A DNA stretch of 64,000 nucleotides from a virus: IMG/VR virus record IMGVR_UViG_3300031951_000126, positions 2,430 to 66,429 of that record, one strand, 5' to 3'. Of the stretch, positions 1 to 43,688 are shown piece after piece. The first letter of the stretch is position 1; each line of letters begins with the position of its first letter. The position numbers and the translations under genes are program-made. The notes under the pieces were generated by a model. That model did no database searches, had not been told where the DNA came from, and was given only the letters and a program-made list of their open reading frames with translations.

Positions 1-2
1 AG

Positions 3-56
3 GGCCAGATGGCTAAGGCTCAATACTTGAAGCAGACTGCTAAGAAGAAGAAGTAA
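3..56 (+). CDS. C-terminus of a small Lys-rich protein (partial)
   Basis: Frame reads ...GQMAKAQYLKQTAKKKK*; the TAA overlaps the next ATG (TAATG). Confidence 0.6.
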   Translation, partial: GQMAKAQYLKQTAKKKK

Positions 57-175
57 TGGCTAAGTCACTAGGAAACGGGGCCAAGATGACCTTTGGCAAG
101 CGCAAGGAGGGGAAGCCTTTCAAGCGAAAGTCTCCCAAGGATAAGAATGTTAAACCAACAAGGGGACAGGGATAA
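56..175 (+). CDS. small basic protein, 39 aa (not in ORF track)
   Basis: MAKSLGNGAKMTFGKRKEGKPFKRKSPKDKNVKPTRGQG*; TAATG coupling at both ends. Confidence 0.7.
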   Translation: MAKSLGNGAKMTFGKRKEGKPFKRKSPKDKNVKPTRGQG

Positions 176-330
176 TGGCAAAAGCAGGATTATACGCAAA
201 CATCAACGCCAAGCGCAAGAGAATTGCTGCTGGATCAGGCGAGAAGATGAGGGAACCCGGCAGCAAGGGTGCGCCTAAGTTGAAGGACTTTATCAAGTCC
301 AAGCTGACCGCTAAAAAGAAAAACAAATAA
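175..330 (+). CDS. small basic phage protein, 51 aa (GLYANINAKRKRI type; not in ORF track)
   Basis: MAKAGLYANINAKRKRIAAGSGEKMREPGSKGAPKLKDFIKSKLTAKKKNK*; recognisable motif of aquatic-phage basic proteins. Confidence 0.8.
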   Translation: MAKAGLYANINAKRKRIAAGSGEKMREPGSKGAPKLKDFIKSKLTAKKKNK

Positions 331-347
331 TCTAAAAATCGAACACA

Positions 348-614
348 ATGGCAATTCGCAAAGCAAAACAGACGGATCCAAAAAAAACTAATAGCTCTAG
401 CGCTACCTCTAATACAAAACCAACTTATCAAACACCTCCAGATATTCGTTCAAAATACGATCAAATGAGGTCTGAGAACACACAAAAAGCGCTTCAAAAG
501 TCTAGAGAAACTTCATCATCAGCCCCCAAGAAGCAACTAATGAAGAAGACTGTTAAGGTTTCTGGGTCTACTCCAAAGAAACAATTGATGATGAAAACAA
601 CAAAGGTAAAATAA
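348..614 (+). CDS. small basic low-complexity protein
   Basis: K/S/T-rich with a duplicated PKKQLM(K/M)KT motif; TAATG coupling to next gene. Confidence 0.7.
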   Translation: MAIRKAKQTDPKKTNSSSATSNTKPTYQTPPDIRSKYDQMRSENTQKALQKSRETSSSAPKKQLMKKTVKVSGSTPKKQLMMKTTKVK

Positions 615-877
615 TGGCCAAGTCACCAGCATGGCAACGTAAGGAAGGCAAGAATCCCGAAGGAGGTTTGAACGCTAAGGGTCGAGCTGCTTACAAGCGA
701 GAGACTGGAGGTACGTTGAAACCGCCGGTGTCTGCTAAACAGGCCAAGAAATCACCCAAGTCTGCTGCTCGTCGTAAGTCGTTCTGTGCAAGGATGGGTG
801 GTATGCCTGGTCCCATGAAGAAACCAAATGGCAAACCCACTCGGAAGGCGTTAGCTCTTCGCAAGTGGGATTGTTAA
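614..877 (+). CDS. small basic phage protein (DUF6321-like)
   Basis: AWQRKEGKNPEGGLNAKGRA...RRKSFCARM...ALRKWDC signature. Confidence 0.85.
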   Translation: MAKSPAWQRKEGKNPEGGLNAKGRAAYKRETGGTLKPPVSAKQAKKSPKSAARRKSFCARMGGMPGPMKKPNGKPTRKALALRKWDC

Positions 878-920
878 AGATGCACGGGTTGTGTAGACGG
901 CCCGTTGTAGTTACGACTAA

Positions 921-945
921 AGCCGGGGTAATTCCCGGTTTTTTT
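921..945 (+). terminator. intrinsic terminator after the basic-protein cluster
   Basis: GCCGGG-GTAATT-CCCGGT followed by a T-run; convergent genes follow. Confidence 0.8.
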
Positions 946-1036
946 ATTTGTCAGACCGCTCTACGATCTTGACGATTGCGTATGCTAGAATATACAGGGC
1001 GCACATGGCCATTAGTCCCGTGATGTAAATGTCCAT
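944..1036 (-). CDS. 30-aa single-TM micro-protein
   Basis: MDIYITGLMAMCALYILAYAIVKIVERSDK*. Confidence 0.55.
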   Translation of the reverse strand: MDIYITGLMAMCALYILAYAIVKIVERSDK

Positions 1037-1131
1037 ATGAAGAGGATGTAGATTAGGGTTAGGATGAGGTAGTAAATGACCACGGTGACCCAGTGGGGCT
1101 TGTTGAGTTCCCACCGGACCATCCGGAGCAT
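1012..1131 (-). CDS. 39-aa single-TM micro-protein
   Basis: MLRMVRWELNKPHWVTVVIYYLILTLIYILFIWTFTSRD*. Confidence 0.55.
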   Translation of the reverse strand: MLRMVRWELNKPHWVTVVIYYLILTLIYILFIWTFTSRD

Positions 1132-1136
1132 TTTTC

Positions 1137-1259
1137 TTACATTAGATTTACACATACTTGAATGAGGTAGAATGTTGCAACCCCTAGGGCAATCATGACC
1201 AGGTAGGGGATCAGGGTTTCAAATTCCCGGCTGTTAAAAAAGTTATACTTCTTGTTCAT
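1137..1259 (-). CDS. 40-aa single-TM micro-protein
   Basis: MNKKYNFFNSREFETLIPYLVMIALGVATFYLIQVCVNLM*; A-rich initiation region AAAAACAAACGAAATG. Confidence 0.6.
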   Translation of the reverse strand: MNKKYNFFNSREFETLIPYLVMIALGVATFYLIQVCVNLM

Positions 1260-1331
1260 TTCGTTTGTTTTTGTAACAAATCTGGTAAAAATTTGTTACA
1301 GGTTTTGTTACAATTCTTCAAATATTTGTGA

Positions 1332-1544
1332 CTACATCTTCATAATCTTCTTGAGATACAGTGCCAGATCAAGCGCCTCCTCGTATGCGTGTTGAATCCA
1401 CTCTTTCTGATTTAGGTCATTCCGGTCCATTGTCTTCTTGTACTCGGAGTATCCCTTCTTCTCACGCATGATCAAGTCTACAACCACTTCATTGAGAAGG
1501 TCCGATGCGTGTTTTATCGGCTTATCGTTGCTTGTATGTCCCAT
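1332..1544 (-). CDS. small all-alpha protein, MazG/dNTP pyrophosphohydrolase-like
   Basis: REKKGYSEY..TMDRNDL...WIQHAYEEALDLALYL motif. Confidence 0.55.
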   Translation of the reverse strand: MGHTSNDKPIKHASDLLNEVVVDLIMREKKGYSEYKKTMDRNDLNQKEWIQHAYEEALDLALYLKKIMKM

Positions 1545-1702
1545 CTGTATTTATGCCAGTTTCGTTCAGTTCCCATCATTTTATCCAGCTTCCAGCAGTC
1601 GTTGAGGGCCTTGGATTTGGCCAGTTCGGGGGTCTTAGCCCTTGCCTTGGCGTTGTGAACTAGCGTATCGCCGTCCCAAACCGTTATTACGTAATTATTC
1701 AT
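1514..1702 (-). CDS. hypothetical protein
   Basis: Start reassigned to MNNYVITV; overlaps flanking genes as in an operon. Confidence 0.55.
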   Translation of the reverse strand: MNNYVITVWDGDTLVHNAKARAKTPELAKSKALNDCWKLDKMMGTERNWHKYRWDIQATISR

Positions 1703-1886
1703 GTATCTCGTAGGTTGAATTTTTCCACACACGCACCTGATCGCTGGTAAAGTGCTTGATTTCCCCTCCATTTAGGAGAACGACCGTTATCTCGTCATTT
1801 TCCAGCATCCCCCCTGCCGTTATGTAGAGGATGTATCCGTCTCCAAGGGGAGTCGTAACTGGGATTGGTGAAGGGGGAAAGGTCAT
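1695..1886 (-). CDS. hypothetical protein (small beta-barrel-like)
   Basis: PIPVTTPLGDGYILY...GEIKHFTSDQVR; recurrent small phage family. Confidence 0.6.
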   Translation of the reverse strand: MTFPPSPIPVTTPLGDGYILYITAGGMLENDEITVVLLNGGEIKHFTSDQVRVWKNSTYEIHE

Positions 1887-1894
1887 CCTTGCAC

Positions 1895-2368
1895 TTAATG
1901 AGTAGATTCTCCACTTCGTCCATCTTCATCGACTTCAATCCCGGCAGGTTGTTCTTCACCACCGTGGTGATCAGATCCTGATCCATCTGTGGTCTCCACT
2001 CCGTTAGCTGCTGGATTAGATGCTCCTTCAGCGCTTGCTTGGTTCTTTTCATCTATTTGTCGTTTTATGTCCGAAATTCCTTGATTTACTACCTCCCAAT
2101 ACTCTACCTGCAAGGTTGCGAGGTTCTGGAGCGTGATTTCCATCAAATCTACCGTCTTTAGGTACGCATCACCACCCTCAATGTCTCCCATGAGCTTAAA
2201 CACGGGCATAAGCTCGCGTTCCAGCTTAGAAATAAGGTTTTTTGAGTGCATTTTGAGGTCATGCTTGAAGAAATTCAAGTCTACACACTCGTCGTGACAC
2301 TGGGCATAGATTTGTTGTGCGCCTAATGCGGTCACAATCAGTCGTTTTTTTCTTTCGAGATCGTTCAT
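1895..2368 (-). CDS. hypothetical protein with acidic tail
   Basis: 157-aa ORF with A-rich initiation region. Confidence 0.7.
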   Translation of the reverse strand: MNDLERKKRLIVTALGAQQIYAQCHDECVDLNFFKHDLKMHSKNLISKLERELMPVFKLMGDIEGGDAYLKTVDLMEITLQNLATLQVEYWEVVNQGISDIKRQIDEKNQASAEGASNPAANGVETTDGSGSDHHGGEEQPAGIEVDEDGRSGESTH

Positions 2369-2427
2369 TTCGTTTAATTATGTGGCGAATTTACAACACG
2401 AGAGGAGTTAATGCAAGGATTTTAACA

Positions 2428-2682
2428 TTAATTTGCGCTAAACATAAAGCTCACGTCGCTCATAATGATCTCGTCTACCTGTTCCATAGAAAGCCCTACG
2501 ATAAAGTCGTCACCACCGGAACTTACCATACATAGGTTCTTGTAATTTTGATAGGGTCGTACATTATCGATGCTGTAGAATATAGCAGGCTCGCATTCGT
2601 ACTTATCGGGAGTAACCCCAACCAAGTCAGCCAACCGTTTTTCTTCGGTATCAATCACCACAGGTAGTATGACTCTCAGCAT
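2428..2682 (-). CDS. hypothetical protein
   Basis: 84-aa ORF abutting the upstream gene. Confidence 0.65.
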   Translation of the reverse strand: MLRVILPVVIDTEEKRLADLVGVTPDKYECEPAIFYSIDNVRPYQNYKNLCMVSSGGDDFIVGLSMEQVDEIIMSDVSFMFSAN

Positions 2683-2683
2683 A

Positions 2684-2926
2684 TTAGTCCAAATTTACTC
2701 GTCTGTAACCAAGCGCCCATAAGAAGTCTGAGATTTTTATCCCGTACTCTTCAACATACTGCTCATCCCAATGTTTGAACTCGTGATGAAGATATTCGTG
2801 GATTATTACCTCTAGATGTTCCTTTGCGGGGAGACGCGGATCAATTTCAATCAAGCCGTCCTCATGGTAAAGACCCCTAGCCTTTTCCCTGCCCAACTTG
2901 CGATATTTGATCCTCGGATTCTCCAT
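2684..2926 (-). CDS. minimal zincin-like (HExxH) protein
   Basis: G.YH..GLIEIDPRL...IIHEYLHH...E..VE pattern. Confidence 0.65.
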   Translation of the reverse strand: MENPRIKYRKLGREKARGLYHEDGLIEIDPRLPAKEHLEVIIHEYLHHEFKHWDEQYVEEYGIKISDFLWALGYRRVNLD

Positions 2927-2993
2927 ACTGCAAAATACAGAAAAAAATTCCACCGGCCCGTAACAAAAACACGCACAAAAATGTTACGAGAGA

Positions 2994-4016
2994 TTATTTA
3001 ATTCTACCCTCTACGATGCGGTAGTTTGTTACCTCAAAATCCTCATTATCAAATACTTTTACGTGTGCAAATCCGTGTGTAAATTTGTTAATTGGCATAT
3101 AGTCAGGGTGGAGTTCGCACAGGCAGGCCACCGACCAGCAGGTTGTAACCTTCCCGTTGATGTTTGGCTCGGTATGCTCCGATGTCTGGTGGTGGTGTCC
3201 GCAGATTGCGTTGTCCTTGGCCCGGAGATAAAGTCCACGAGCGATGTTTACTGGGCTGAACATACTTGAGCCGAATTCGTGTCCATGTAACGCCACCAGC
3301 TTGCCCATTTTAACAAGTTGCTTGTCTGGAATGAACGTGATGTTCAATTTATCCAGATGTAGGATAGATTGCAGGGAAAACTCCTCAATTCCTACAAGGT
3401 CCGATGCGTTATTGATCAGGTAGTGGTCCCAGCGGATATCGTGGTTTCCTGCTTTGAAGTATATTGCTTGTGTAGGGAACAGTCGTCGCAAGGTGTAGAG
3501 AAAGTCTCTTGCCATGTAGATTTCTGTGGCGAGGTCCCTTTTGCGCGGGTCTTTTTGGAAACGGCTGATCGCGTAGAAGTCGATGAGGTCCCCATTAATG
3601 TAGATTGTGTTGACCTCATTTTCAAGGCCGTACTTGAGTGCAGCTGTGAGGGCAGGAATGTTGTGATATGGTACGTGAATGTCGGTGAGAAATAGGATAT
3701 CATTATGATTGACTGGAAATTTATACGGATTGTATTTGTTCTCCTTTGAATCTGGAAGACCCAAGGGATTATTTTCGGGCATCAGCTCATTAATGATTTC
3801 CTCGAATGCGTTTACTATTGCTTGTGGTTTTAGTCGAGCCTTTTTTACCGGCTCTTTATGTGAGTTTTTCTTTTTCCATGCCATAAAAGATCTCTTAAAG
3901 GAATCTAGGCTACATCCAGTTTCGGTTTTGTGCCATTCCTCTTCAAGTTTTTTGTTCTGACTTAGGTCTCGCGAATCGTTGAGAATGTTCAGATAGTTTT
4001 GTACGTTATTTTTCAT
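2994..4016 (-). CDS. calcineurin-like metallophosphoesterase
   Basis: DIH, GDLID, GNHD, HGH and GHHH motifs in canonical order. Confidence 0.9.
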   Translation of the reverse strand: MKNNVQNYLNILNDSRDLSQNKKLEEEWHKTETGCSLDSFKRSFMAWKKKNSHKEPVKKARLKPQAIVNAFEEIINELMPENNPLGLPDSKENKYNPYKFPVNHNDILFLTDIHVPYHNIPALTAALKYGLENEVNTIYINGDLIDFYAISRFQKDPRKRDLATEIYMARDFLYTLRRLFPTQAIYFKAGNHDIRWDHYLINNASDLVGIEEFSLQSILHLDKLNITFIPDKQLVKMGKLVALHGHEFGSSMFSPVNIARGLYLRAKDNAICGHHHQTSEHTEPNINGKVTTCWSVACLCELHPDYMPINKFTHGFAHVKVFDNEDFEVTNYRIVEGRIK

Positions 4017-4052
4017 TTAGTTGATATATTGCAAATATAATCACCATCACCG

Positions 4053-4135
4053 AAAAAAAACCGCCCCTAATCAGGAGCGGTTCACACAAACGAAATGATT
4101 AAAACAAACTGAACTTGCGCCACAACAACGCAACT
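4053..4135 (-). ncRNA. candidate small antisense RNA with its own promoter and terminator
   Basis: TACATTTG promoter (4139-4146, minus), 5' hairpin, U-rich core, terminator ACCGCTCCT-GATT-AGGGGCGGT plus U-run; no ORF. Confidence 0.55.
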
Positions 4136-4167
4136 CAGCAAATGTATCAACAAACATTTTAGTTTGC

Positions 4168-4377
4168 TCATTTTCTTTTGATTACGATGACTTTTTGCTT
4201 TTTATTTTCTGACCTCATTCCCCTCTTCCAAGCCATGTATTTGATTGGGAGTATTGATCCAATCGTTAATGCACAGCCCAATGCACTTGCATAGTTTTTT
4301 TGCACAATAGAAAGTGCAAAACCAATAAAAAATGCAACAAGGAATGACGTGAGTGTAATGTTGGGAAGCTCCAACAT
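4168..4377 (-). CDS. small two-TM membrane protein
   Basis: Two hydrophobic segments and a basic tail; start uncertain. Confidence 0.55.
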   Translation of the reverse strand: MLELPNITLTSFLVAFFIGFALSIVQKNYASALGCALTIGSILPIKYMAWKRGMRSENKKQKVIVIKRK

Positions 4378-4582
4378 ATGTCGAATAAATGATTTTTTTA
4401 GTTCCAAAATATGAATTGTGTTTTTGGGGTTATGTCTCCCATTATGATCAATGTCGCTGGGACGCAAATATACATCGTTTTATTTTCTCCATTTTCAACC
4501 CAGGTAAACCGCTCGAATATCCGTGACTCAATGATTGACATTATGGGGTGATTTTAATTTATCTTTGCTAAAACTAGTGGCT

Positions 4583-4873
4583 ATGAGAAATAAACTTGCC
4601 GGTAAATCTTTGGGGAAATCTAAGTCTGCCAAGCATTATGCAAGTAATGCAGAGTCCAGAGAAAAGAAAGCCGATTATGATAAAAAATATCACTCGACTG
4701 AAGAAAGGAAAAAGTACCGAGCATCCCTTAACCGCGCCAACCGCAAGGCAAATACCTACGGTAATGGCGACGGAAAGGATATGTCCCACACCAAGTCCGG
4801 TAAGATAGTTAAGGAAAAGCAATCTTCTAATAGGGCTAGGAATGGTCATAACGGAAAGTCTTCTAAGAAATAA
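4583..4873 (+). CDS. small basic HNH-like protein (T7 gp7.7-like)
   Basis: R...NRA.R.....GDGKDMSH......SSNRARNG; TATCTTTG promoter at 4560-4567. Confidence 0.65.
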   Translation: MRNKLAGKSLGKSKSAKHYASNAESREKKADYDKKYHSTEERKKYRASLNRANRKANTYGNGDGKDMSHTKSGKIVKEKQSSNRARNGHNGKSSKK

Positions 4874-5141
4874 GTCCGTAGTTTAGCTTATCGTATTGGT
4901 CAAGATTAATCAACTTGCCATCGAATTTTCCACGGTAGGTACAATCGATAATCTCACAATCTCCACTAGTTCCCCAAGCCAAAGCCATTGCGCGGATATG
5001 TTTCTTAACGGCCTCAGTGCTATTGAGTATTTCTGAGGTTTGCAATATTTCGTTGTTTTCCCCAATTGTTCTAACACGAAAGGCGTTAATCTTTTTACCG
5101 TCAATTGTTCGTCTTGCATCTTTGATTTCAATTCTGCCCAT
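4863..5141 (-). CDS. YegP/DUF1508-like protein
   Basis: FRVRTIGENNEILQTSEIL.S..AV...I resembles DUF1508. Confidence 0.5.
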   Translation of the reverse strand: MGRIEIKDARRTIDGKKINAFRVRTIGENNEILQTSEILNSTEAVKKHIRAMALAWGTSGDCEIIDCTYRGKFDGKLINLDQYDKLNYGLIS

Positions 5142-5397
5142 CTTCTATTTTTTTAAGTTCGTTAAATTGTCCACCAAGCCAAAGGTACATATCCTTACCT
5201 GTAAGTTCATACAGTCGCTTATTAATCAACCTCATAAGGCTGTAATCTCTCTTGTAATCTCTAGATGGCTTGTACACACCCTTCTTTTTAGGGTATTTGG
5301 CGTCAGCCTTCAGCATTTTATGCCTTAGTTTCCGAAGGTGCTGTAACTCGGTCGATGTCGATGGAGTAGGAGGCAAGGATATCTGGATTCCGTTCAT
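5128..5397 (-). CDS. hypothetical basic protein
   Basis: 89-aa ORF in the operon. Confidence 0.55.
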   Translation of the reverse strand: MNGIQISLPPTPSTSTELQHLRKLRHKMLKADAKYPKKKGVYKPSRDYKRDYSLMRLINKRLYELTGKDMYLWLGGQFNELKKIEDGQN

Positions 5398-5803
5398 TGA
5401 AAAAGTCTAATAAAAGTTCTTGTTTGGTTGGATCTAGGTCGGCAATGAAGTGACGTATTTTATTGCGGCGTACCGCGTTGTATGAGTAATCACCCCTCAC
5501 GGTTTTGATTGCGTGACAGACAGTTGAATGATCTTTGTTAACTGTTCTGGCAACCTCTGCTAAACTCTTGGTAGAGCAAACTTTTACAGCAGCCATGTAT
5601 ACATGGCGAGCCAAAACTATGTCAGCATAACGCTTATCACTCTTGATATCCGCAGTAACAACATTGAAGTGTTTGCTAACCTTTTCTAATATTTCATTTT
5701 CATGCGGATTATCTACCTTGTGTAGGTATTCGTAAATCTTCGTGAACTCCGCTCGTCTTGTAACCGGAACCATGTCCACTAGGTCTTTGAATGTATATCT
5801 CAT
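5318..5803 (-). CDS. DnaA C-terminal (domain IV)-like HTH DNA-binding protein
   Basis: VSKHFNV...DIKS.KR...IVLARHVYM...SLAEVAR..NKDHSTVCHAIKTV. Confidence 0.85.
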   Translation of the reverse strand: MRYTFKDLVDMVPVTRRAEFTKIYEYLHKVDNPHENEILEKVSKHFNVVTADIKSDKRYADIVLARHVYMAAVKVCSTKSLAEVARTVNKDHSTVCHAIKTVRGDYSYNAVRRNKIRHFIADLDPTKQELLLDFFNERNPDILASYSIDIDRVTAPSETKA

Positions 5804-5821
5804 TGTTCGTTTGTTTAGTTA

Positions 5822-5862
5822 AGCCGTGGCGGGTTTGCTTGCATTTATCCCCCGCCACGACT
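5822..5862 (-). other. intergenic 12-bp hairpin between SSB and the DnaA-C gene
   Basis: AGTCGTGGCGGG...CCCGCCACGGCT; no U-tract. Confidence 0.5.
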
Positions 5863-5873
5863 CTTGGTTAAGA

Positions 5874-6509
5874 TTAGAATGGCAATCCGTCATCGTCCGG
5901 ATCTTCAACCACCTGCGGGGCAGCATATGAATCCAACTTTTTTACAGAGCTAACCGCCTTTACTTGGGGAAGGAAAATATCGTTGAGGTGCTTCTCAAAG
6001 AACTCCTGGCGCTCTGAGTCATCCCACACAACCTGTCCCTTTACCTTGATCTGTTTCATTTCAGGCATATTGCCTGGGTTGTCCTTAGTCCAACCCCACT
6101 TGATGTCTTCCTGGCCATGACGCAGGTACAACATGGTACGTGTCTTTCCGTCGATCTCCTTTGACCACGGGGTAAGAGTAATCTCCTTACCTGCATCAAT
6201 GTTAGGCATTGACAAAAAGAAACCTGATGAGTAACGTGAACTCCACGGCATCTGAATCTGATACTCGTTGTCACCATCTTTCAGAACAACACAGAGCTGA
6301 TCGCCATACCCTTGCTCGGACACTCGCTTGAACACGTCTGTAATATATCCTGACAGAGATGTGTAACGCTCTTCGTACCAAATCTTAGTACCGTCTTTGC
6401 TGTTACACTTAATTGAGCCTGCCGTGCCTTCTGCGACACGCTTGGCAATCTTACCGTTAGAAATACTAAGGTAAGTACGGTTTGATGAACCACCTTGATT
6501 TAATCCCAT
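5874..6509 (-). CDS. single-stranded DNA-binding protein (putative)
   Basis: beta-rich core, acidic C-terminus DPDDDGLPF, next to the helicase. Confidence 0.7.
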   Translation of the reverse strand: MGLNQGGSSNRTYLSISNGKIAKRVAEGTAGSIKCNSKDGTKIWYEERYTSLSGYITDVFKRVSEQGYGDQLCVVLKDGDNEYQIQMPWSSRYSSGFFLSMPNIDAGKEITLTPWSKEIDGKTRTMLYLRHGQEDIKWGWTKDNPGNMPEMKQIKVKGQVVWDDSERQEFFEKHLNDIFLPQVKAVSSVKKLDSYAAPQVVEDPDDDGLPF

Positions 6510-6588
6510 AGATTTTTTGATTAATTAATTGGTTATATTTGCAAATGTAGCATATGTGTTTCTTTTGTGCAAGAAAAAAAATGTTAAA

Positions 6589-8529
6589 TTATTCCCAAGC
6601 CTCCTTGTATCCGTTTGGATGCTGGATATCCTCGTTCCATTCCTTGGCCTCCTTAGAGTCGGTCCAGTTTCTATTTGGTTTAATCGCAGAGGTCTTTGGT
6701 TCCTCAATAGCGGCCTGCACATATCTGCCGTCAATCGCCTGCTGTAGGTAATCAACCCCATCAAACGTAAACCTGCGGGTATTCCTTTGCAACTGAAACT
6801 CAAAGAAGCCCTTTATACCCACGATCTTTTGTCGGCGGATCTTCTTACTGTGGAACTCGCAGATCGGGCTTTCTGGGGCTGTCTGAGCGAACGGACGGTG
6901 GTATATTAGGATGTTATCAGCCTTGTTGTTCCACATCGCACCGTCTGCAAGGTCAAATACCTCCGGACATGGGTAGTTGCCGTCATCACCCTTCCTCATC
7001 TTGTGAGGGTGGACCACGATGTCGAAGTATACGTTGTTCTTTCGTGCGAACCGGGTACAATCCGACAGGAACGTCTCCAGGTACTTGTCGCTGCGTCCTC
7101 CTCCCTTCGTATAATCATTTGCCATTTGATTGAACGGGTCGATGACAACTCGCTCCACACCATGCTTGACGATGAGGGTAAGGAATACCTCCTTAACGTA
7201 TTCGGGAGTAGGGCTTACACTCTTGGGATAAACCATAAAGATGTGTTCCCCAATCATCTTGTACACCTTCATGTACATATCGTATGACGGACGGTTAGGG
7301 TTGTTGGGTGTGCAGTCTTTCCCAAAATAGATCTCCACAAGGTCATGGTAGAACTGCTCCGCCGGTAATTCCTCAGGAGTAAATATGGCCACCTTCTCCC
7401 CGAATCTGACTATTCGGAACACCATCTCCCACTTCATGAACGACGACTTACCATAGTTCCCTATACCGGAAACAATTGTTAAATCGCCCTTCACTCTTTT
7501 GAAGTGTTTGTCAAGTAGTGGAACACCCAGAGGTTGAGCTGCACGATATCCGTGTAAGTAAATGTCGGAAGCCTGCTCCATAACTTCTTCCGCATAAATC
7601 ACGTCATTCGCCGCAATATTCTCCGCATCTTCTGCGGTAATTACAATGTCAACCTCCACTCGGTTAGTCTTACTAACCAACTGATCCTTGGTAAACTCGG
7701 CTGTGTTCCATTGGTTCATATTGGCCCTGTATGCGCTACGAATAGCCTGTCTACACTCGCGTTGGCTGAAACTAGCATCAGGCACAACGTAGGTCATCAT
7801 CATGTTGTAACAGGTCTCCTCAAGCATCCCGAACCGGCAGCAGCTTGCAGCCAACTTGAACACAAAGTGATTCCTTTCCCCCTCGCGGAACGCATCACCC
7901 TTTGATGTCATCCACGTAAGAAGGTTTTGGAATATCTTGTCGTCGTCGTTAATCGTTTCCGTAGTTGTGCTTTGGGGCAACCTTTTATCGGCCTTATTTA
8001 CCGGCAACTTGGAGTAGACCTCTGCGTTCGGGTTGTAATAAAGCTCTGTGTCATACGACTCGAAGCAGAGGCGGGAAACATTACGGCCAGTCTTATCAAT
8101 GTCTGGAAACTCCACCATTAAGGCATCAAAATGCTCTTTATGTTTTGTTTTCCATTCAATTTCGACCAAAGCCTTCAGCCCCTTTCCGGAAGGTGACACC
8201 CAAACAGCCGTGATGTAACTTATAAGTGACAATTCATTTCTCTTTTGGGCAATATTTGTCACATTATCGAAATCAAGCACGATGTATCCGGAGTGTTCGA
8301 CAAGTTCGGAGTCCTTTCTTTTGGAGAATGTGCCACTAAAACATACAGCGGGGAGTTTTTTCTTTAAATCGTCGGCCTCCTTCTTAGTCTTGGCTTCCCT
8401 CGCCTGTTCGACAAGTACCTTTGATTTTCCAGTCCGAATTCGTTCAAGTGCGCCCAGCACAGTAATTTGGTGTCCTTGCAGGTCGTTGAAGTCTTTGTAG
8501 ATTGATACCTTACCATGTATTGTTGTCAT
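6589..8529 (-). CDS. primase-helicase: VirE-N/BT4734-like + PriCT + SF4 (DnaB-like) helicase
   Basis: KKKLPAVCFSGTF, LDFD, SPSGKGLK; GERN (PriCT); Walker A GIGNYGKS, VIDPFN, VVHPHK, WNNKAD. Confidence 0.9.
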   Translation of the reverse strand: MTTIHGKVSIYKDFNDLQGHQITVLGALERIRTGKSKVLVEQAREAKTKKEADDLKKKLPAVCFSGTFSKRKDSELVEHSGYIVLDFDNVTNIAQKRNELSLISYITAVWVSPSGKGLKALVEIEWKTKHKEHFDALMVEFPDIDKTGRNVSRLCFESYDTELYYNPNAEVYSKLPVNKADKRLPQSTTTETINDDDKIFQNLLTWMTSKGDAFREGERNHFVFKLAASCCRFGMLEETCYNMMMTYVVPDASFSQRECRQAIRSAYRANMNQWNTAEFTKDQLVSKTNRVEVDIVITAEDAENIAANDVIYAEEVMEQASDIYLHGYRAAQPLGVPLLDKHFKRVKGDLTIVSGIGNYGKSSFMKWEMVFRIVRFGEKVAIFTPEELPAEQFYHDLVEIYFGKDCTPNNPNRPSYDMYMKVYKMIGEHIFMVYPKSVSPTPEYVKEVFLTLIVKHGVERVVIDPFNQMANDYTKGGGRSDKYLETFLSDCTRFARKNNVYFDIVVHPHKMRKGDDGNYPCPEVFDLADGAMWNNKADNILIYHRPFAQTAPESPICEFHSKKIRRQKIVGIKGFFEFQLQRNTRRFTFDGVDYLQQAIDGRYVQAAIEEPKTSAIKPNRNWTDSKEAKEWNEDIQHPNGYKEAWE

Positions 8530-9151
8530 CTTGAATAGGTGTTTGTTTTATTGTTTTATTTTGTGTTTCGTCTTCCCATCTTCTGTCACGAAGGTATCGT
8601 ACAGGGTCTTTCCAATACTTGGGTTCGCGACCCGATTTATGGTTACCCACGCCTTCTACAGCAAGTATGCGATCCTCAGCAGAGAGTTTGTTCCATACAG
8701 TTAAGGTCTGTTTCTTATCCACCTTCTTGTTGTATGCTTGCCAAAAATCCTCAAAAGAGTATTTATATGTTATTTCTTTTTTTGTATTATCTATATATGT
8801 AGTGGCGGGTTTTCGGATATCGGGTTTTCCGCTTTCCGTTAAACCGCTCTCGGTTGGCTCGTAGTAGACGATGTAATTAAATCCCCTTGACAACCCATCA
8901 TTACCAATTATACGCACCGAATGTATGTACCCTAAAAGCTCCAACTCGTCCCAAGCGCTAGATATTGAATCCTTACCATCTAGCGAGTAATCGGTCAATT
9001 TGCTTTTGTAAATAACCCAATCATGGGGGAGGGACAACAGAAATGACAATAGCCCCTTTGCTTTTAGGCTTATTGACTTGTCCCTTAAAAATTCAGTAGG
9101 AACCATCGCAAAAGGCACGTTCCTGGTTTTAACAATTTGTCCTGTATTCAT
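8510..9151 (-). CDS. replication initiator, N-terminal winged HTH (lambda O-like)
   Basis: FLRDKSISLKAKGLLSFLLSLPHDW...ELELLGYI; C-terminal FEDFWQAYNKKVDK...DPVRYL..RRWEDE. Confidence 0.85.
   Translation of the reverse strand: MNTGQIVKTRNVPFAMVPTEFLRDKSISLKAKGLLSFLLSLPHDWVIYKSKLTDYSLDGKDSISSAWDELELLGYIHSVRIIGNDGLSRGFNYIVYYEPTESGLTESGKPDIRKPATTYIDNTKKEITYKYSFEDFWQAYNKKVDKKQTLTVWNKLSAEDRILAVEGVGNHKSGREPKYWKDPVRYLRDRRWEDETQNKTIKQTPIQDDNNTW
8760..8865. repeat. putative replication origin: 15-bp-period iterons plus AT-rich tract inside the initiator gene
   Basis: Units at 8806, 8821, 8836, 8851 (CGGGTTTTCGGATAT / CGGGTTTTCCGCTTT / CCGTTAAACCGCTCT / CGGTTGGCTCGTAGT) next to AT-rich 8760-8800. Confidence 0.5.
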
Positions 9152-9156
9152 AAAAT

Positions 9157-9265
9157 AAAAAAAGCTCGCAAGAACCACTTTGCGAGCCTTTAGGTTGGTA
9201 AGAGCAATTCATTACCTTCCAACCCTCGTTTACTGTGGTTCTTTAGCAAACGAGGAGTGAAATAT
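9157..9265 (-). promoter_or_regulatory. structured attenuator-like 5' leader of the replication operon
   Basis: TATGTTTG promoter (9270-9277), hairpins 9224-9255 and 9193-9224, terminator 9164-9187 with U-run directly before the ATG. Confidence 0.7.
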
Positions 9266-9296
9266 TGGGCAAACATAAACTAACCACGCGAGGTTG

Positions 9297-9488
9297 TCAA
9301 GTGTTTTCTTCATTATTTTTTATATGCCAGGTTTCGCAATCCCAGCACATATAGACTTTTTGGTCGTAATCACAATGAGACTCAGCCTCTTTGCGAGTTT
9401 TATAGGTCCGCTTTCCGCAGCCATAAATAGAGTTCTTCATCATGAACCAAATGCAAAATATTGTAAGTACGATAGAAACGATAAACAT
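9297..9488 (-). CDS. small zinc-ribbon protein
   Basis: CGKRTYKTRKEA...YMCWDCETWH; hydrophobic N-terminus. Confidence 0.55.
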   Translation of the reverse strand: MFIVSIVLTIFCIWFMMKNSIYGCGKRTYKTRKEAESHCDYDQKVYMCWDCETWHIKNNEENT

Positions 9489-9552
9489 AGCGCAAATTTA
9501 CACTGTTTAATCTTATTTCCAAGCAAGAACTTGACACAGTGTTGTTTTTCTG

Positions 9553-9560
9553 TATATTTG
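9553..9560 (+). promoter_or_regulatory. Bacteroidota sigma70 -7 element (TAnnTTTG) opening the packaging/morphogenesis operon
   Basis: TATATTTG just before ATG 9565. Same element at 4032, 4465, 4560, 6542, 9493, 14247, 29096, 42532, 43016, 54514, 57476 and 59713. Confidence 0.7.
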
Positions 9561-9564
9561 CAGC

Positions 9565-9786
9565 ATGACAAACTTGAGACCACCAGACGGAAAAATATTT
9601 GTTGACGTTCTTGAAAAAGAAAAGGGCAACGTAACAGCTGTAATTACCCACGTTGGAAAAGAGGTAGATGAAGAAATAGCGATCGGTAAAAAAGTTTCGC
9701 TTGCCAAACTTCCAGACATGGTTGAATTGCAGGGAGTTGAAATGTATTCAATCCACTCATCATACGTACAGTTTATTTATGAATAA
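9565..9786 (+). CDS. GroES-like co-chaperonin (short mobile loop)
   Basis: LRPPDGKIFV...AVITHVG..V.EEIAIGKKV...VELQG.EM..I. Confidence 0.65.
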   Translation: MTNLRPPDGKIFVDVLEKEKGNVTAVITHVGKEVDEEIAIGKKVSLAKLPDMVELQGVEMYSIHSSYVQFIYE

Positions 9787-10081
9787 GGTAGACAACTGGA
9801 AAAGGGCGATATCTATTATCAATACAATGATTGATGAGAAGATTGAGATTTACGAGGTGATGAAGATTTTCACCCCAATGGCATCTTCTGCTCGTAGAAA
9901 TCTTTTGTATTGCAATCCAAGCATCAGTTCTGATGATTTGGATCAGGTTGAAAAGGCCATTTCGAGATACAAGAATACGTTGGAAGAAATAGGAAAAACA
10001 CAAGTTGAGACTCGCATTAAGCGATCAACTTATTTTCAAAAACTGAAAGAGCATTATGATAAGGACAAAGACAAAAAATAA
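9779..10081 (+). CDS. hypothetical protein
   Basis: Start reassigned to MNKVDNW; operon coupling. Confidence 0.6.
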   Translation: MNKVDNWKRAISIINTMIDEKIEIYEVMKIFTPMASSARRNLLYCNPSISSDDLDQVEKAISRYKNTLEEIGKTQVETRIKRSTYFQKLKEHYDKDKDKK

Positions 10082-10307: not shown

Positions 10308-11107
10308 ATTTTAACGGTATAGATGTAAACACCATAAGGTTGATAAATGGAGAGTGCCTGGTTCAAATCCATTCTATGACTGAAGACGAGATAGATTTTA
10401 ACGGAGGCAAACTAAAGCTGGTTCATTCCCTGAAGTCTGAAACTGGGGATTTCAATCCTAATGAAATTAGAAGTCTTGTTGACTCAATGAAAAAAAGCCA
10501 TTACAAGGATAAGGAGGCTAAGAAAAAGTACATGGAACTGTATGGGAAGCAAATACAGGAGGCGGATGATAAGAAGGAGGACCACAGGATGAAGCAGGCC
10601 GTTAGAAGGGGTGTTATTGTAAGGCTTCCAGAAAAAGATCCCAATAACGGTGGATGGGATTTTAACTGCGAGTTTGATGGGGTTGTTGGTGATGAGGTTT
10701 GGTTTGACTCTATGTCCACAAGGGAGAAAATAGAAAGCGGAGAAGGAGGTATTGTGATCGGAGACAAAACCTACATAAGTGTACCGACCAGAACAGTCCT
10801 TGCCGCAAAGCGTGGTGATGAAATAATTGGTCTTAATGGGTACATAATTGGGAGAAGGTTGTCAAACGACATAAAGTTTGGTTCCATATACCTGCCAGAT
10901 TCTAATATAGCCAGGGTGGAAGTTGTATCGCCTCCACAAAGAAATCCATCTTATACTAACAAGATATTGTGGACTAACACTTCTGTAAAGAAGGGGGATA
11001 TTGTGTGTTTAAATAAGAATCACGCAATAAAGTTGGATTCTACCATGGCTGAATCAACTGACTTGGTTAGGTTTCAGTCAAGGGTAATACTTGCATTTGA
11101 AGAATGA
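10304..11107 (+). CDS. tandem GroES-like domain protein
   Basis: RGVIVRLP...VVGDEVWF and LNGYIIG...GSIYLPD...VKKGDIV. Confidence 0.6.
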   Translation: MNFNGIDVNTIRLINGECLVQIHSMTEDEIDFNGGKLKLVHSLKSETGDFNPNEIRSLVDSMKKSHYKDKEAKKKYMELYGKQIQEADDKKEDHRMKQAVRRGVIVRLPEKDPNNGGWDFNCEFDGVVGDEVWFDSMSTREKIESGEGGIVIGDKTYISVPTRTVLAAKRGDEIIGLNGYIIGRRLSNDIKFGSIYLPDSNIARVEVVSPPQRNPSYTNKILWTNTSVKKGDIVCLNKNHAIKLDSTMAESTDLVRFQSRVILAFEE

Positions 11108-11757
11108 TAAAACTGGACTTTAGTAAAATATCGTACAACATTGAAGGCATCCCAGATGACGAGTCGGTAATATACCGTTTCTCGGACTTGGCCAGTCAAG
11201 CCCATATTCTCGATAGGTCAGATGATCTTCCAGAAGGGGTTAGCGCCGACAAGGTTGTTCGATATCTCATATATATGTTCGCTCCAGGTACTCCCGTTAA
11301 GGATGCGTATCCGGACATCAACCAGCGCAAACGATATACTCTGAACAAGCTGAACATCATGGTTGATGACACGGATCCAGACAACGGGTACGCCCAGCTC
11401 TGCATGATGAATGTAGACTGGGCGGTGGAGCGTTACATCACGTTCACGCGCCTACAGTGTTCGGAGGATTACTCGATTATGAGTACCGCCGACATCCGAA
11501 TAGCCGCCCTGCAACGTGCACTCTTGACTCAGCCTGTGGACAGGTCTAATGATGACAAGAACTTCCAGGCAGGTCTTGAGAGCTGGAGACAGACCCTTGT
11601 GGATGCCCGTAGCAGGATAATGAACGACGAGGTTAGCATCACGCTACAGAAAGCAATTACCTTCTCTGTACGCGCTGAGAACCTCGGTATTCAACCCGAA
11701 CACTATGCGCGGGTATGGCGTGAGAAGAAAGAAATATTCCCGGAGGTAATACCATGA
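11104..11757 (+). CDS. putative terminase small subunit / packaging-associated protein
   Basis: Helical protein immediately upstream of and overlapping TerL. Confidence 0.45.
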   Translation: MIKLDFSKISYNIEGIPDDESVIYRFSDLASQAHILDRSDDLPEGVSADKVVRYLIYMFAPGTPVKDAYPDINQRKRYTLNKLNIMVDDTDPDNGYAQLCMMNVDWAVERYITFTRLQCSEDYSIMSTADIRIAALQRALLTQPVDRSNDDKNFQAGLESWRQTLVDARSRIMNDEVSITLQKAITFSVRAENLGIQPEHYARVWREKKEIFPEVIP

Positions 11758-14216
11758 AGTACGAATACGACGAGGAGGATAAGTACGTTACGTTCCACGA
11801 GGACGACGATGAGTTGGACACGATCAGGATTCCGCTGCCGCGTCTTGAGGAGTGGTATTCCCACCATTTAAAGAGAGAGGTTACAAGGGAAGAGGCTTTT
11901 ACATATGTTGACGGGTATGGAATCGCCCCAAAAGAGCAAAAGTTCCAGTACCAAGAGGTCCCTGAGAAGATAAAGTTAATCTACGAGGTTGTGTTCAATA
12001 AGAAGCACGCTACCAACAAGTCCAAGTATAAGGAGGTTGGAGACGTCCGTCTTGAGGACATCTACGAGGAGGTAGAGTCTAATCAGAAGTATTATGCGAT
12101 GGAGATTGAATGGATCAAGCTCCAAATCAAGCGCAGATATGTTGGGTACTGGTGTTTCATTAAAGGGAAACCTACCTACATCAATGGAGCAAACTATTTC
12201 TTTCTGAACTTCTGGACTGTAAAGAATTTTGGTAAAAACAATAACCGTCCAGACTACAGAGATTACCAGCGCAAGATGTTCCACCTGTTCATGTATGCGT
12301 ACAGCACAGAGGATGCATTCTACAAGCACAAGATTATATATCGCGAAGATGGTGTTGTGAAAACAAAGTATTCAAACCAAGACGTCAAGAACGTAGTGGA
12401 CGAAATGAACGAAATGGGAGTTGAGTATTTTGTAGAACCAAACATAAACATCACAGTAAAGAAGGGAAAGCGAACGGTTCACGGAATCAACTTTGTTTCT
12501 GGACGACGTATCGCAAAGACAGCTATTGCTTGTTGCTTCTGCACATGGGGTACACTCAATATGCCCGACCAGACCTTTATCATCCAGGCGATGAACGAGG
12601 ATCAGGCAGTCAACAAGATATTCATCAAACAAATTCAAACACCTGTAAGCAAACTTCCTTTCTTTTTCCGCCCCTATTACAGAGGCCGTATAGAAGCAAA
12701 GGAGGGTTTGCGATTCCAGTATGAAGGAGCAATCGCATCAGCAGCAAGAGCGGGAATCGTCCCCGAACAAATGGAGTGCTTTATCACGCCGTTGCCTTCG
12801 ACGGAGAAAGCGGCGGACGGTGAGGCGGAAATCGCATTTGTTTATCGTGACGAGCCGGCGAAGAAGACGGATGCGAAAGCGGCGGACCAAAACATCCCGA
12901 CGTGGTGGTATAACACGATGAAGCCAGCGATTGAACGCGGGGAGAACATACGAGGGTTCTGCATCATGCCTTCTACAGTGGGTGACATGGACACAGGGGG
13001 TGGAGCGCAGTTCTTTGATATTGCCAATGACTCGCACTTCTCTGACCGCAACGAGAACGGTACAACTCCATCTGGACTCATCAACTTCTTCCTGCCCGGT
13101 TACTACGCGGTAGAAGGATACATCGACGAGTACGGGGCGAGCATTATTGATGATCCAAAGGAACCTGTGATGTCCAACGAGGGCAAGTGGATTACCAAGG
13201 GAGCTAAGTCTTACTTGTTAAACCAGGCGGACTATTTCGAGCGCAAGCGTGAGTGGCAGAAGCTAATTAAGTTACAGCAGAACTTCCCAATGAGCTGGAA
13301 GCAAGCCTTCGCCGTGATTCCCAAGGATATGGGTATGCCTATCGAAAAGATGCGTGACCGCATATCTGAACTCAAGTTTTCACGCACTCCAATCACCACG
13401 AATATCAACTTCAAGTGGATGGGGGACAAGTTTGGTGGAGATGTATTTGTGGATAATGATCCAAAGGGAAGTTGGACTATGAGCTATTTGCCCCCGCACG
13501 AACAGCGTAACAGAAAAACTGTTGTTACCCCAGAGGAGGGATACATCCCGCCAAAAGCACGTGGACCGATATATGCTCCAGATCCATCGGTAATGAATAA
13601 GTTTTTCCTCTGTTGTGACCCCGTTAAATTCCACAAGCGAAACACTGTTGGTAAGAAGAAGTCTAACGCAGCCGCAGCGGTTTTCTATAAGCGAGACAGT
13701 CAGGTAGATCCAGATAACAAGCCTAGAAACGAATGGGTGAGTAATGACTGGATTTTGATTTATAACAGACAAACTGAAGATAAGGCCGAGTATCACGAGG
13801 AGTGGTTAAAGGCTGCCGTTTTTCTTGGTGCATACGTATACCCAGAATGGCCTGACGGAGAGGCTTTAGTTGAGTACTTTAGGGATAATGGATTTGATGG
13901 ATACCTTCTCAAGGATATAGGATCAGATGGCAAACAGGATAATAGGCCGGGTGTTTGGGCGGGCGAGGCAGAGAAAAATGAAATGGCTGGAGACATCATG
14001 ACATTCTTCAATAACAATGTTAAGTATGTGAAAATGTGGGAGATAGTTGAGGAGTGGAGTCAGATGAGGGGTATAGATGACTTGACAAACCATGACTTGT
14101 GCGCCGCAACCGGTTGGTGCATGAGGGCCATAAAAAGCAGAATGCCAGATCTTTACAAGGAGGTTTATCAACCCATAGATATAAAGGGAAGTTTTACAAT
14201 GTTTGATGTAGAATGA
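11754..14216 (+). CDS. terL: terminase large subunit (crAss-like)
   Basis: YINGANYFFLN, PDYRDYQR, Walker A-like GRRIAKT, Walker B VYRDE, nuclease CCDPV and HD. Confidence 0.9.
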   Translation: MKYEYDEEDKYVTFHEDDDELDTIRIPLPRLEEWYSHHLKREVTREEAFTYVDGYGIAPKEQKFQYQEVPEKIKLIYEVVFNKKHATNKSKYKEVGDVRLEDIYEEVESNQKYYAMEIEWIKLQIKRRYVGYWCFIKGKPTYINGANYFFLNFWTVKNFGKNNNRPDYRDYQRKMFHLFMYAYSTEDAFYKHKIIYREDGVVKTKYSNQDVKNVVDEMNEMGVEYFVEPNINITVKKGKRTVHGINFVSGRRIAKTAIACCFCTWGTLNMPDQTFIIQAMNEDQAVNKIFIKQIQTPVSKLPFFFRPYYRGRIEAKEGLRFQYEGAIASAARAGIVPEQMECFITPLPSTEKAADGEAEIAFVYRDEPAKKTDAKAADQNIPTWWYNTMKPAIERGENIRGFCIMPSTVGDMDTGGGAQFFDIANDSHFSDRNENGTTPSGLINFFLPGYYAVEGYIDEYGASIIDDPKEPVMSNEGKWITKGAKSYLLNQADYFERKREWQKLIKLQQNFPMSWKQAFAVIPKDMGMPIEKMRDRISELKFSRTPITTNINFKWMGDKFGGDVFVDNDPKGSWTMSYLPPHEQRNRKTVVTPEEGYIPPKARGPIYAPDPSVMNKFFLCCDPVKFHKRNTVGKKKSNAAAAVFYKRDSQVDPDNKPRNEWVSNDWILIYNRQTEDKAEYHEEWLKAAVFLGAYVYPEWPDGEALVEYFRDNGFDGYLLKDIGSDGKQDNRPGVWAGEAEKNEMAGDIMTFFNNNVKYVKMWEIVEEWSQMRGIDDLTNHDLCAATGWCMRAIKSRMPDLYKEVYQPIDIKGSFTMFDVE

Positions 14217-43013: not shown

Positions 43014-43040
43014 AGTATATTTGCACCACAACGAAATGAT

Positions 43041-43688
43041 ATGATTGAACTAAAATTAGCGGATCCAACCCCGCACGAATTAGGAGAATATAGAGAGTTA
43101 ATTAAGGAACTGAAAAACAAGTTACCGGAAGCCTGGGTGATGGTTGATCGAGGGGCTAGTGATTACGCTATATGTACTACATCAATTTGGATAGAAGATG
43201 ATCGAAAAACTGACTGGCACTCCGCTATCTACCCCTCGGTTCCCAACCGGGGAACAGCGCAAATCAAGGCGGATATTCTCGCCCTTACCTTCGCTATGCG
43301 CGAACTTGGGTTTGATATCAAGTTTTTGGACAGCGATCCGCCGGTTCGTGAGAAGGTTTCGATAACCCGTGGGAGGCTCGATGGCTGCGTTTCCTTGCGT
43401 CAATTAGTGGAGCTGCTCGAAGATGCGAACCACGAAAAGTTGTCGGAGGTAAAGACGATGATAGAGAACAAGCGCAAGGAGGGCGGGCGTCCAAGCAAGA
43501 GGTCGGTCATTGATTTTATCTTTTCGGGCGCCAAGGAAGAAAAGCGGGCGCAGCCTGTACGAACCGGCCCAGAGTGGGCGCGTGTCAAGATGGAATGGCG
43601 CGATAAATTTGCATCTTCTAAGTATGCGAAAATGTATAAAAGTCTCGACGAGTTTTGTACCTTTGCTTCTGAAGAAGAATGTAAATAA
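43041..43688 (+). CDS. hypothetical protein
   Basis: Start reassigned to MIELKLAD after promoter 43016; TAATG-coupled to the tail fibre. Confidence 0.65.
   Translation: MIELKLADPTPHELGEYRELIKELKNKLPEAWVMVDRGASDYAICTTSIWIEDDRKTDWHSAIYPSVPNRGTAQIKADILALTFAMRELGFDIKFLDSDPPVREKVSITRGRLDGCVSLRQLVELLEDANHEKLSEVKTMIENKRKEGGRPSKRSVIDFIFSGAKEEKRAQPVRTGPEWARVKMEWRDKFASSKYAKMYKSLDEFCTFASEEECK

Follow-up and report, generated by a model that had tools for sequence, protein, structure and literature searches.

A Conserved Candidate Small RNA Family of Freshwater Phages with a Plausible Regulon of Start Regions

Introduction

This study concerns a short intergenic unit on the minus strand (positions 4146–4053) of a 64,000-nt window of phage DNA, which comprises bases 2430–66429 of a virus record (IMGVR_UViG_3300031951_000126) that is complete at 66,429 bp and has direct terminal repeats. 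Comparison with related phages makes it highly probable that the unit represents a conserved, previously undescribed family of phage small RNAs (sRNAs), and plausible that this has a regulon of phage start regions, to which its exposed core is antisense.

Small phage RNAs that pair with phage mRNAs include sar of P22, OOP of lambda, c4 of P1/P7, CI of P4, and prophage sRNAs of E. coli; c4 and sar act by masking ribosome-binding sites. In the case of sar and OOP, the RNA is cis-antisense to a gene that it overlaps, whereas the unit overlaps none: the strand opposite to it carries only a 5-codon frame, and no TANNTTTGC box is present on the plus strand between 4032 and 4560. In contrast to c4 and CI, which are immunity RNAs of temperate elements and are processed from the target transcript, the unit has its own promoter box and its candidate targets are dispersed; nor did the complete 66.4-kb genome give a sign of a temperate element, in that a search for integrases of the tyrosine type, not extended to serine integrases, found none. 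The T4 protein RegA shuts down the translation of several early mRNAs by binding to their initiation regions. The likeness to RegA, that of one phage factor acting on several early start regions, is an analogy only, as the factor proposed here is a base-pairing RNA and not a protein. To our knowledge, phage regulatory RNAs have been described almost only in enterobacterial systems.

The enterobacterial sRNAs DapZ and MicL are transcribed from their own promoters at the 3′ end of a gene and have a terminator in common with that gene. The phage unit is similar with respect to a promoter at or just after the end of the upstream gene, a shared terminator, and an unpaired seed upstream of the terminator. 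It differs in phylum and promoter type, Hfq is not expected for the phage RNA, and its −7 box is located 22 nt past the upstream stop codon, so that coding sequence is overlapped only by the invariant block further upstream.

GibS of Bacteroides thetaiotaomicron uses a long unstructured seed to pair with the initiation regions of two mRNAs lacking a Shine-Dalgarno (SD) sequence, and represses both (PMC7366714). The predicted likeness is that both are Bacteroidota-type RNAs with a conserved, unstructured, A/U-rich seed across the start codon of SD-less mRNAs; neither is known to have an obvious dependence on Hfq or ProQ. However, there is no homology of sequence or structure (Bacteroides sRNA models score 16–18 bits against thresholds of 82–105), and the seed of GibS is at the 5′ end, whereas that of the phage RNA is between two hairpins. 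The phage RNA is, moreover, phage-encoded with phage genes as candidate targets, and is known here from sequence alone. Among the matches listed by full-text literature searches, there was no sRNA encoded by a Bacteroidota phage.

Results

The preliminary description of this DNA had proposed a non-coding minus-strand unit that runs from a promoter to a terminator, and each of its parts could be located. The small membrane-protein open reading frame (ORF) upstream ends with TGA at 4170–4168, and 22 nt past this stop codon is the box TACATTTG (4146–4139), which matches TAnnTTTG, the consensus −7 element for the primary sigma factor of Bacteroidota (PMC7366714); the sRNA transcript would start near 4135. 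A 5′ stem-loop (4133–4115, with a 7-bp stem and a 4–5 nt loop) is followed by an unpaired, U-rich core of 31 nt (4114–4084), the proposed seed region, which contains the segment UUUGUUUUAAUCAUUUCGUUUGUGUG quoted in the preliminary description. The core can be divided into a 5′ half, UUCAGUUUGUUUUA, and a 3′ half, AUCAUUUCGUUUGUG, which is antisense to AAACGAAAUGA. The intrinsic terminator (4083–4053) has an 11-bp G+C-rich stem with a 4-nt loop (stem-loop 4083–4058) and eight U residues (4060–4053). It tops the 12 terminator-like sites printed by a scan of positions 1–10000 (11 pairs, 6 of them G-C), and it combines the G+C-rich stem-loop and U tract of an intrinsic terminator with pairing that is retained in relatives.

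The terminator also ends the transcript of the upstream membrane-protein gene. As this gene carries its own TATATTTGC box (4472–4464, minus strand), the segment of the unit is at the same time the 3′ end of the upstream mRNA. Located 3′ of the terminator are GGTGATGGTGAT, a TATATTTG box (4039–4032), and the ATG at 4016 of a metallophosphoesterase gene; a tandem GGTGAT GGTGAT and the TATATTTG promoter box of that gene (4051–4032, minus strand) mark the end of the unit. The tandem GGTGAT copies (4040–4051, minus strand) may be an operator or a promoter element.

A search with the phosphoesterase protein identified 39 related loci (80–99% identity), and the unit is at the same position upstream of the metallophosphoesterase gene in all 36 that have enough flank to align. 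Exactly one copy is present in each of six complete genomes. A 21-nt core pattern matched 34 viral contigs, all but one of which had already been found via the protein, and a looser core pattern matched 44 metagenome stretches, 38 of which match a covariance model (R1), built from an alignment of the units, over its whole length or to the contig end. The other six have unrelated flanks and no covariance-model match, and are read as chance or unrelated matches; the same applies to an exact 21-nt core match at 3126–3146 of L095, a metagenome-assembled genome contig labelled Chloroflexota (Brevefilum), where the flanks are unrelated and the model is unmatched. Of 35 new loci obtained with a wider family pattern, only 3 match the model, namely a contig from the same clade, a locus truncated by a contig end, and the contig of a distant relative; one more is marginal (L211, E 0.88). 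The viral and metagenome contigs together provide 38 distinct unit variants, and the R1 model is now available for finding more members.

Diversity figures were derived from 30 distinct loci. The core (4110–4084) has a diversity of 0.049, with 22 of 27 columns invariant, and the −7 box region (4146–4136) one of 0.018, with 9 of 11 columns invariant; the corresponding values are 0.272 for the 5′ hairpin, 0.216 for the terminator stem-loop, 0.403 for third codon positions of the phosphoesterase gene, and 0.488 for those of the upstream ORF. The −7 box is at a fixed spacing from the hairpin, and the TATATTTG promoter of the downstream gene is conserved directly after the terminator. The unit itself is far beyond chance. 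In Rfam release 15, no family reached its gathering threshold anywhere in the window; the best sub-threshold match was DUF3800-I (25.1 bits against 44.2), and the Bacteroides sRNA models BTnc201 (18.5 against 105 bits) and BTnc049 (16.1 against 81.9 bits) also remained below threshold. On the best reading of these comparisons, the unit would be a member of no described RNA family and represent a new family of phage sRNAs.

A further nearly invariant block, of 27 nt (4194–4168, minus strand), forms the 3′ end of the membrane-protein ORF, where it encodes KVIVIKRK and the stop codon, and spans about −59 to −33 relative to the predicted sRNA start. Its diversity is 0.030, with 23 of 27 columns invariant, and that of its third codon positions is 0.052, compared with 0.488 in the ORF body. 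The block occurs once in the window, is absent from the distant relative L173 (see below), and may be an upstream promoter or activator element. It resembles the A-rich start-region motif described below (CAAAAGAAAATGA in the window, CAAACGAAAATGA in some relatives). Pairing of the block with the core was considered (in the window, only 6 bp and some scattered pairs; in the CAAACGAAAATGA variants, 6+6 bp and a bulge), and the idea was dropped, as an A/C polymorphism alters the pairing strongly.

The 87-nt RNA is predicted to fold with −26.4 kcal/mol (z −3.54), and none of 200 shuffles folds as well. In a covariation alignment of related sequences, which was fitted to the model and leans towards the structure, standard pairs occupy 95.3% of 684 stem cells across the 38 distinct sequences, compared with 39–57% when the 3′ partners are slid by 1–3 columns; for the terminator, 96.2% of cells are paired. 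Two pairs in this alignment, one of the 5′ hairpin (UA/GC/UG) and one of the terminator (CG/UA/UG), vary on both sides (27 cells; reached by none of 500 column shuffles), and the inner pairs of the 5′ hairpin vary UG/UA/CG and UA/GC/UG. Folding of single sequences gave the 5′ stem in 17 of 17 variants of the hairpin region, and the order of hairpin, open core, and terminator in 38 of 38 units. The single-stranded core of the preliminary description is borne out, as accessible and conserved, in that its mean unpaired probability is 0.81–0.96 across all 38 variants, and 22 of its 27 columns are invariant.

G-U or U-G pairs are present in 82 of the 684 stem cells (sum of per-pair rows). Their plus-strand equivalents would be A-C mismatches, and the selected RNA is therefore that of the minus strand. 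The preliminary description had named as its own refutation the case that the segment is the decayed initiation region of a plus-strand gene (reading MIKTN*); the near-invariance of the core and the G-U cells exclude this. That an RNA gene exists at this locus at all is highly probable, and sequence by itself may thus suffice to identify conserved intergenic blocks of uncultured phages as RNA genes.

A profile of the 157-aa protein family encoded by one of the candidate target genes described below led to a single contig (L173) with a 151-aa homolog of 48% identity, whose syntenic intergenic region matches the covariance model with 39.7 bits. The unit in L173 retains the TACATTTG box and the 5′ hairpin, and the sequence of its terminator stem is wholly replaced but still pairs. 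As the box is kept despite a different gene upstream of the unit, the promoter box belongs to the RNA unit. GGTGATAGTGA is also retained (about 2207–2219). The L173 core reads UUCAGCUUGUUUAGUUUGUAAAGA and lacks the UCAUUUCG segment; the 5′ half of the core, shared with L173, thus appears to be its older part. The starts of the 151-aa gene and of a 183-aa gene at the syntenic position are without AACGAAAUG, and no start region within about 15 kb in L173 complements the shorter core. This co-absence fits co-evolution of the 3′ seed and the start-region motif.

The complements to start regions listed in the preliminary description are exact at all four sites. An 11-nt complement at 2365–2375 (minus strand) covers the ATG of a 157-aa ORF (1895–2368), just 5′ of which a degenerate −7 box would provide for a short leader. 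AACGAAATG is directly at the start of this 157–160-aa family in every listed row (the window, L002, L004, L006, L007, L009, L012–L019, L021–L031, L033–L038, and L040), and the 157-aa gene is the top-ranked ortholog group in two comparative target rankings, one of them that by contiguous match. A 13-nt complement at 1256–1268 covers the ATG (1259–1257) of a 40-aa membrane ORF (1137–1259); the match itself is as described earlier, but it is on the minus strand and not at a plus-strand gene. The 40-aa N terminus is accompanied by AACGAAATG in the window, L003, L005, and L009, and 43-aa proteins of L017 and L037, related to it by eye, carry AACGAAGATG.

A 9-nt complement at 5806–5814 (minus strand) is 2 nt upstream of the ATG at 5803 of a gene for a DnaA-C-like helix-turn-helix (HTH) protein (PF08299, E 4.4e-18). 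The start of this gene reads AACGAAC(A0-2)ATG in most loci and AACGAAATG in L031 and L040; the start region in L030 has a changed sequence, yet gives a 12-nt match to the other half of the core. On the plus strand, an 11-nt complement (43030–43040) is located in a short leader between a TATATTTG box (43016) and the ATG at 43041 of a 215-aa ORF, and the orthologs in G002 and G005 retain AAACGAA 3 nt before the ATG. A weaker candidate is a 10-nt complement to the 5′ half of the core at 8541–8550 (minus strand), 12–21 nt upstream of the ATG at 8529 of a primase-like gene. This site is within the end of the preceding ORF and is present in all six genomes, a conservation that could be explained by the coding constraint of the overlapping ORF.

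The marking of early genes by AACGAAAUG at their start regions, as earlier proposed, is conserved across the 39 loci and the window, where AACGAA(N0-4)ATG heads four early gene families with unrelated-looking N termini: the 157–160-aa family, a 93–96-aa family (to which a 111-aa form in two loci looks related), the 40–43-aa membrane family, and the DnaA-C-like family. The complements lengthen to 12–14 nt in relatives with the core UUCAUUUCG. Since it is preceded in some places by a promoter box and in others by the end of an upstream ORF, the motif goes with the ATG and not with promoters. The phosphoesterase gene, which is not a target, has by contrast a variable leader (diversity 0.214). Some relatives carry a tandem AAACGAAATAAACGAAATG, with two copies of the sRNA-complementary motif, at the start of the 93–111-aa or 40-aa genes (L004, L006, L009, L017, L026, L031, L037, and L040; about +2850 to +3670 from the core).

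The best non-self match of an RNAduplex genome scan, at ~11324–11355 on the plus strand (13753–13784 in G000; present in 4 of 6 genomes), was rejected as a target because it is inside a 217-aa ORF (11104–11757), the coding conservation of which explains its recurrence. The site is a two-block complement to both core halves and is flanked by an inverted repeat (ATCAACCA...TGGTTGAT), an odd hairpin-loop arrangement.

The preliminary description had called for a comparison of start regions with shuffled controls, and for the phage start regions the answer is divided: conserved contiguous matches exceed shuffles, whereas duplex energies and window-wide counts do not. The comparative tests employed 49 ortholog groups, each represented in no fewer than 4 of the 6 genomes. 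In the region −22 to +8, the longest Watson-Crick match averages 9.67 for the top 3 ortholog groups, compared with 7.90 ± 0.52 in shuffles, a value reached by 4 of 1000 shuffles and by none of 500 shuffles retaining the CAT. In the same region of individual genomes, the sum of the top three matches gave P values of 0.000–0.090. As the contiguous test is positive and the energy test at chance, the signal is one of contiguous perfect pairing at start codons. It is the placement of the matches in start regions and their persistence across relatives, and not the number of matches, that is beyond chance.

Discussion

The presence of a BT4734-like N-terminal domain on the primase-like protein, and of TAnnTTTG boxes 6–46 nt upstream of 14 called genes of the window phage, suggests a Bacteroidota host. 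Such hosts initiate translation on unstructured A-rich leaders without SD pairing, so that a duplex over about −9 to +4 should exclude the 30S subunit from the start codon. We therefore favor, tentatively and with slightly less than even confidence, a phage sRNA that blocks initiation on a few phage mRNAs via its 3′ seed. An sRNA of ~85 nt would be transcribed from its own Bacteroidota sigma-type promoter (TACATTTG), just past the membrane-protein stop codon, and would end at the shared terminator. The 5′ and terminator hairpins would hold the 31-nt U-rich stretch open, enabling its 3′ half (UCAUUUCGUUUGU) to pair with initiation regions that are A-rich and read (AC)AAACGAAAUGA(A). The targets, mostly early, would be the 157-aa gene, the 40-aa membrane-protein gene (the 93–96-aa gene in relatives), the DnaA-C-like HTH gene, and the 215-aa gene (43041). 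The block to initiation would repress translation, perhaps with mRNA decay, and its likely purpose would be to time or limit early-gene expression; on this proposal, the sRNA probably switches off translation of several early genes. We infer the transcription start, the expression, the pairing in vivo, and the direction of regulation from the features described above. With its invariant seed and its list of candidate start regions both short, the system would offer a compact, testable case of translation control on A-rich leaders that lack an SD sequence.

Several observations weigh against this proposal. Counts of complementary 9- to 13-mers across the window are within the shuffle range: among 2000 dinucleotide shuffles of the core, 229 gave at least one 13-mer match and 219 gave at least five 11-mer matches. 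The per-genome excess of start-region matches of at least 9 nt is only modest (3–6 observed against 1.4–2.7 expected; P 0.014–0.164). RNAduplex energies at conserved starts are no better than those of dinucleotide shuffles, which were as good as the real core in 255 of 400 cases for the top 1 group, 169 of 400 for the top 3, and 125 of 400 for the top 5, and the reversed core gave an energy of −17.0, compared with −14.7 for the real core. AACGAA is directly before the ATG in 5 ortholog groups, compared with 6 each for AGCAAC and TAAATA. The preferred A-rich start regions of these hosts have A at −3, according to a published account (PMC6847099), and AACGAA may be one flavor of a generic A-rich start region. 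No compensatory co-variation between core and targets was seen; an A/U polymorphism of the core and a U-to-C change (L035/L036) are unmirrored in the targets. The co-absence of UCAUUUCG and the motif is that of a single lineage, and the invariant 5′ half of the core is unexplained by the proposed phage targets. Finally, no run on record as RNA holds the stretch. Two runs labelled RNA-Seq and flagged “probably DNA” (X19 and X20) each gave two short contigs covering exactly 4015–4155. These bounds are those of the conserved block, which is what assembly graph pieces common to several strains would produce, and they carry no information on the ends, strand, or level of a transcript.

The 5′ half of the core (UUCAGUUUGUUUUA), which is equally constrained, probably has another partner, either a host mRNA or a protein. 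It is conceivable, although unlikely, that the sRNA is real and that its main partners are host mRNAs or a host protein (an RNA chaperone or ribosomal protein S1), with the phage matches being incidental or secondary. The 5′ half is as invariant as the 3′ half, is shared with L173, and finds only weak complements in the phage; the target test by energy does not exceed chance; and 31 invariant unpaired nt exceed the need of a 9–13 nt seed. Contrary to this explanation, the contiguous matches at conserved starts exceed shuffles, and exact complements are present at the ATG of the four families with unrelated-looking N termini. A related suggestion, which we consider decidedly unlikely, is that of an RNA master switch of translation in a lineage that lacks SD pairing, a counterpart of RegA, whose clade-specific 3′ seed would silence the AACGAAAUG early regulon including the DnaA-C-like gene, and whose older, invariant 5′ seed (UUCAGUUUGUUUUA) would reprogram host mRNAs. 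If true, one 85-nt RNA would couple phage timing to host takeover in Bacteroidota phages.

Improbable in our view is an explanation without an independent sRNA, in which the segment belongs to the upstream mRNA as its 3′ untranslated region and terminator, acting in cis (on stability, termination control, or read-through into the phosphoesterase gene) or released only by processing. The unit does start 22 nt past the stop codon with no terminator between, and the TATATTTGC box at 4472–4464 implies that read-through transcripts must contain the segment. However, the −7 box is invariant at a fixed spacing from the hairpin and travels with the unit in L173, where the upstream gene differs, and the downstream gene has its own conserved promoter right after the terminator, so attenuation is unneeded.

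The preliminary description held that the unit contains no ORF. This part of it has to be withdrawn: a 29-codon frame, missed in an initial ORF listing that took in only frames of at least 30 aa, runs from an ATG at 4171, overlapping the upstream stop codon, through the unit. The segment could accordingly encode a small hydrophobic peptide of 29–33 aa, translationally coupled through the ATGA overlap (4171–4168), though we consider this very improbable. All 29 distinct sequences contain a frame from ATG or GTG that stays open over at least 29 codons, with the core in the same frame in 25 of them; a +1 indel in the spacer is often accompanied by a −1 indel in the hairpin loop, one hint in favor; and the A-rich invariant upstream block is start-region-like. 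Against a peptide, the N-terminal half of the frame is read in two frames (11 and 18 of the 29 sequences), and in the 4 sequences with the core in a different frame, 29–33 codons still remain open, so that openness says little. Changes in the hairpin part are non-synonymous yet preserve base pairs, and the core is invariant at all three codon positions, which coding leaves unexplained. The unit does not show a conserved frame with protein-like substitutions.

The idea that the shared 9–11 bp sequence (the AAACGAAATGA duplex) is a DNA operator for a phage transcription factor, such as the DnaA-C-like or HTH_36 protein, present once in the sRNA region and at several promoters, is barely credible. 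In its favor, −7 boxes immediately precede the motif at the 157-aa and 215-aa genes, genes for two HTH proteins are close by, and the sRNA promoter of some relatives is overlapped by a TGTGGATAC-like sequence. Against it, the position of the motif is fixed with respect to the ATG, with the end of an upstream ORF and no promoter box at several loci, canonical DnaA boxes are not enriched (12 with at most one mismatch against 16.6 expected), and hairpin covariation, G-U strand bias, and 31-nt invariance are left unexplained.

Genome Context

The unit is within a minus-strand replication-type block, which comprises genes for an HTH_36 protein, the primase-like protein, a 211-aa protein, the DnaA-C-like HTH protein, and the metallophosphoesterase. 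The window has no tRNAs, and a blastn search of positions 2900–5900 against GenBank phages gave no nucleotide match. The stretch occurs in DNA runs labelled as freshwater, lake-water, or “fungus” metagenomes. In 17 runs, half or more of the words sampled from a 3.1-kb stretch are present, a spread that indicates a phage family abundant in freshwater metagenomes.

The minus-strand early block is interrupted by a lysine-rich plus-strand ORF ending at 4873, which has a TATCTTTGC box at 4560–4568. Within 4464–4568, this box is divergent from the TATATTTGC box (4472–4464, minus strand) upstream of the membrane-protein gene and the sRNA. The 215-aa candidate target gene is followed on the plus strand by a 1799-aa ORF (43688–49087), which, from its length and its glycine- and threonine-rich sequence, we would guess to encode a tail-fibre-like structural protein. 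In the X19/X20 relatives, a 976-nt contig joins 4160 to 5334, implying that the small genes which separate the unit from the DnaA-C-like gene (~1.2 kb) are missing in some strains.

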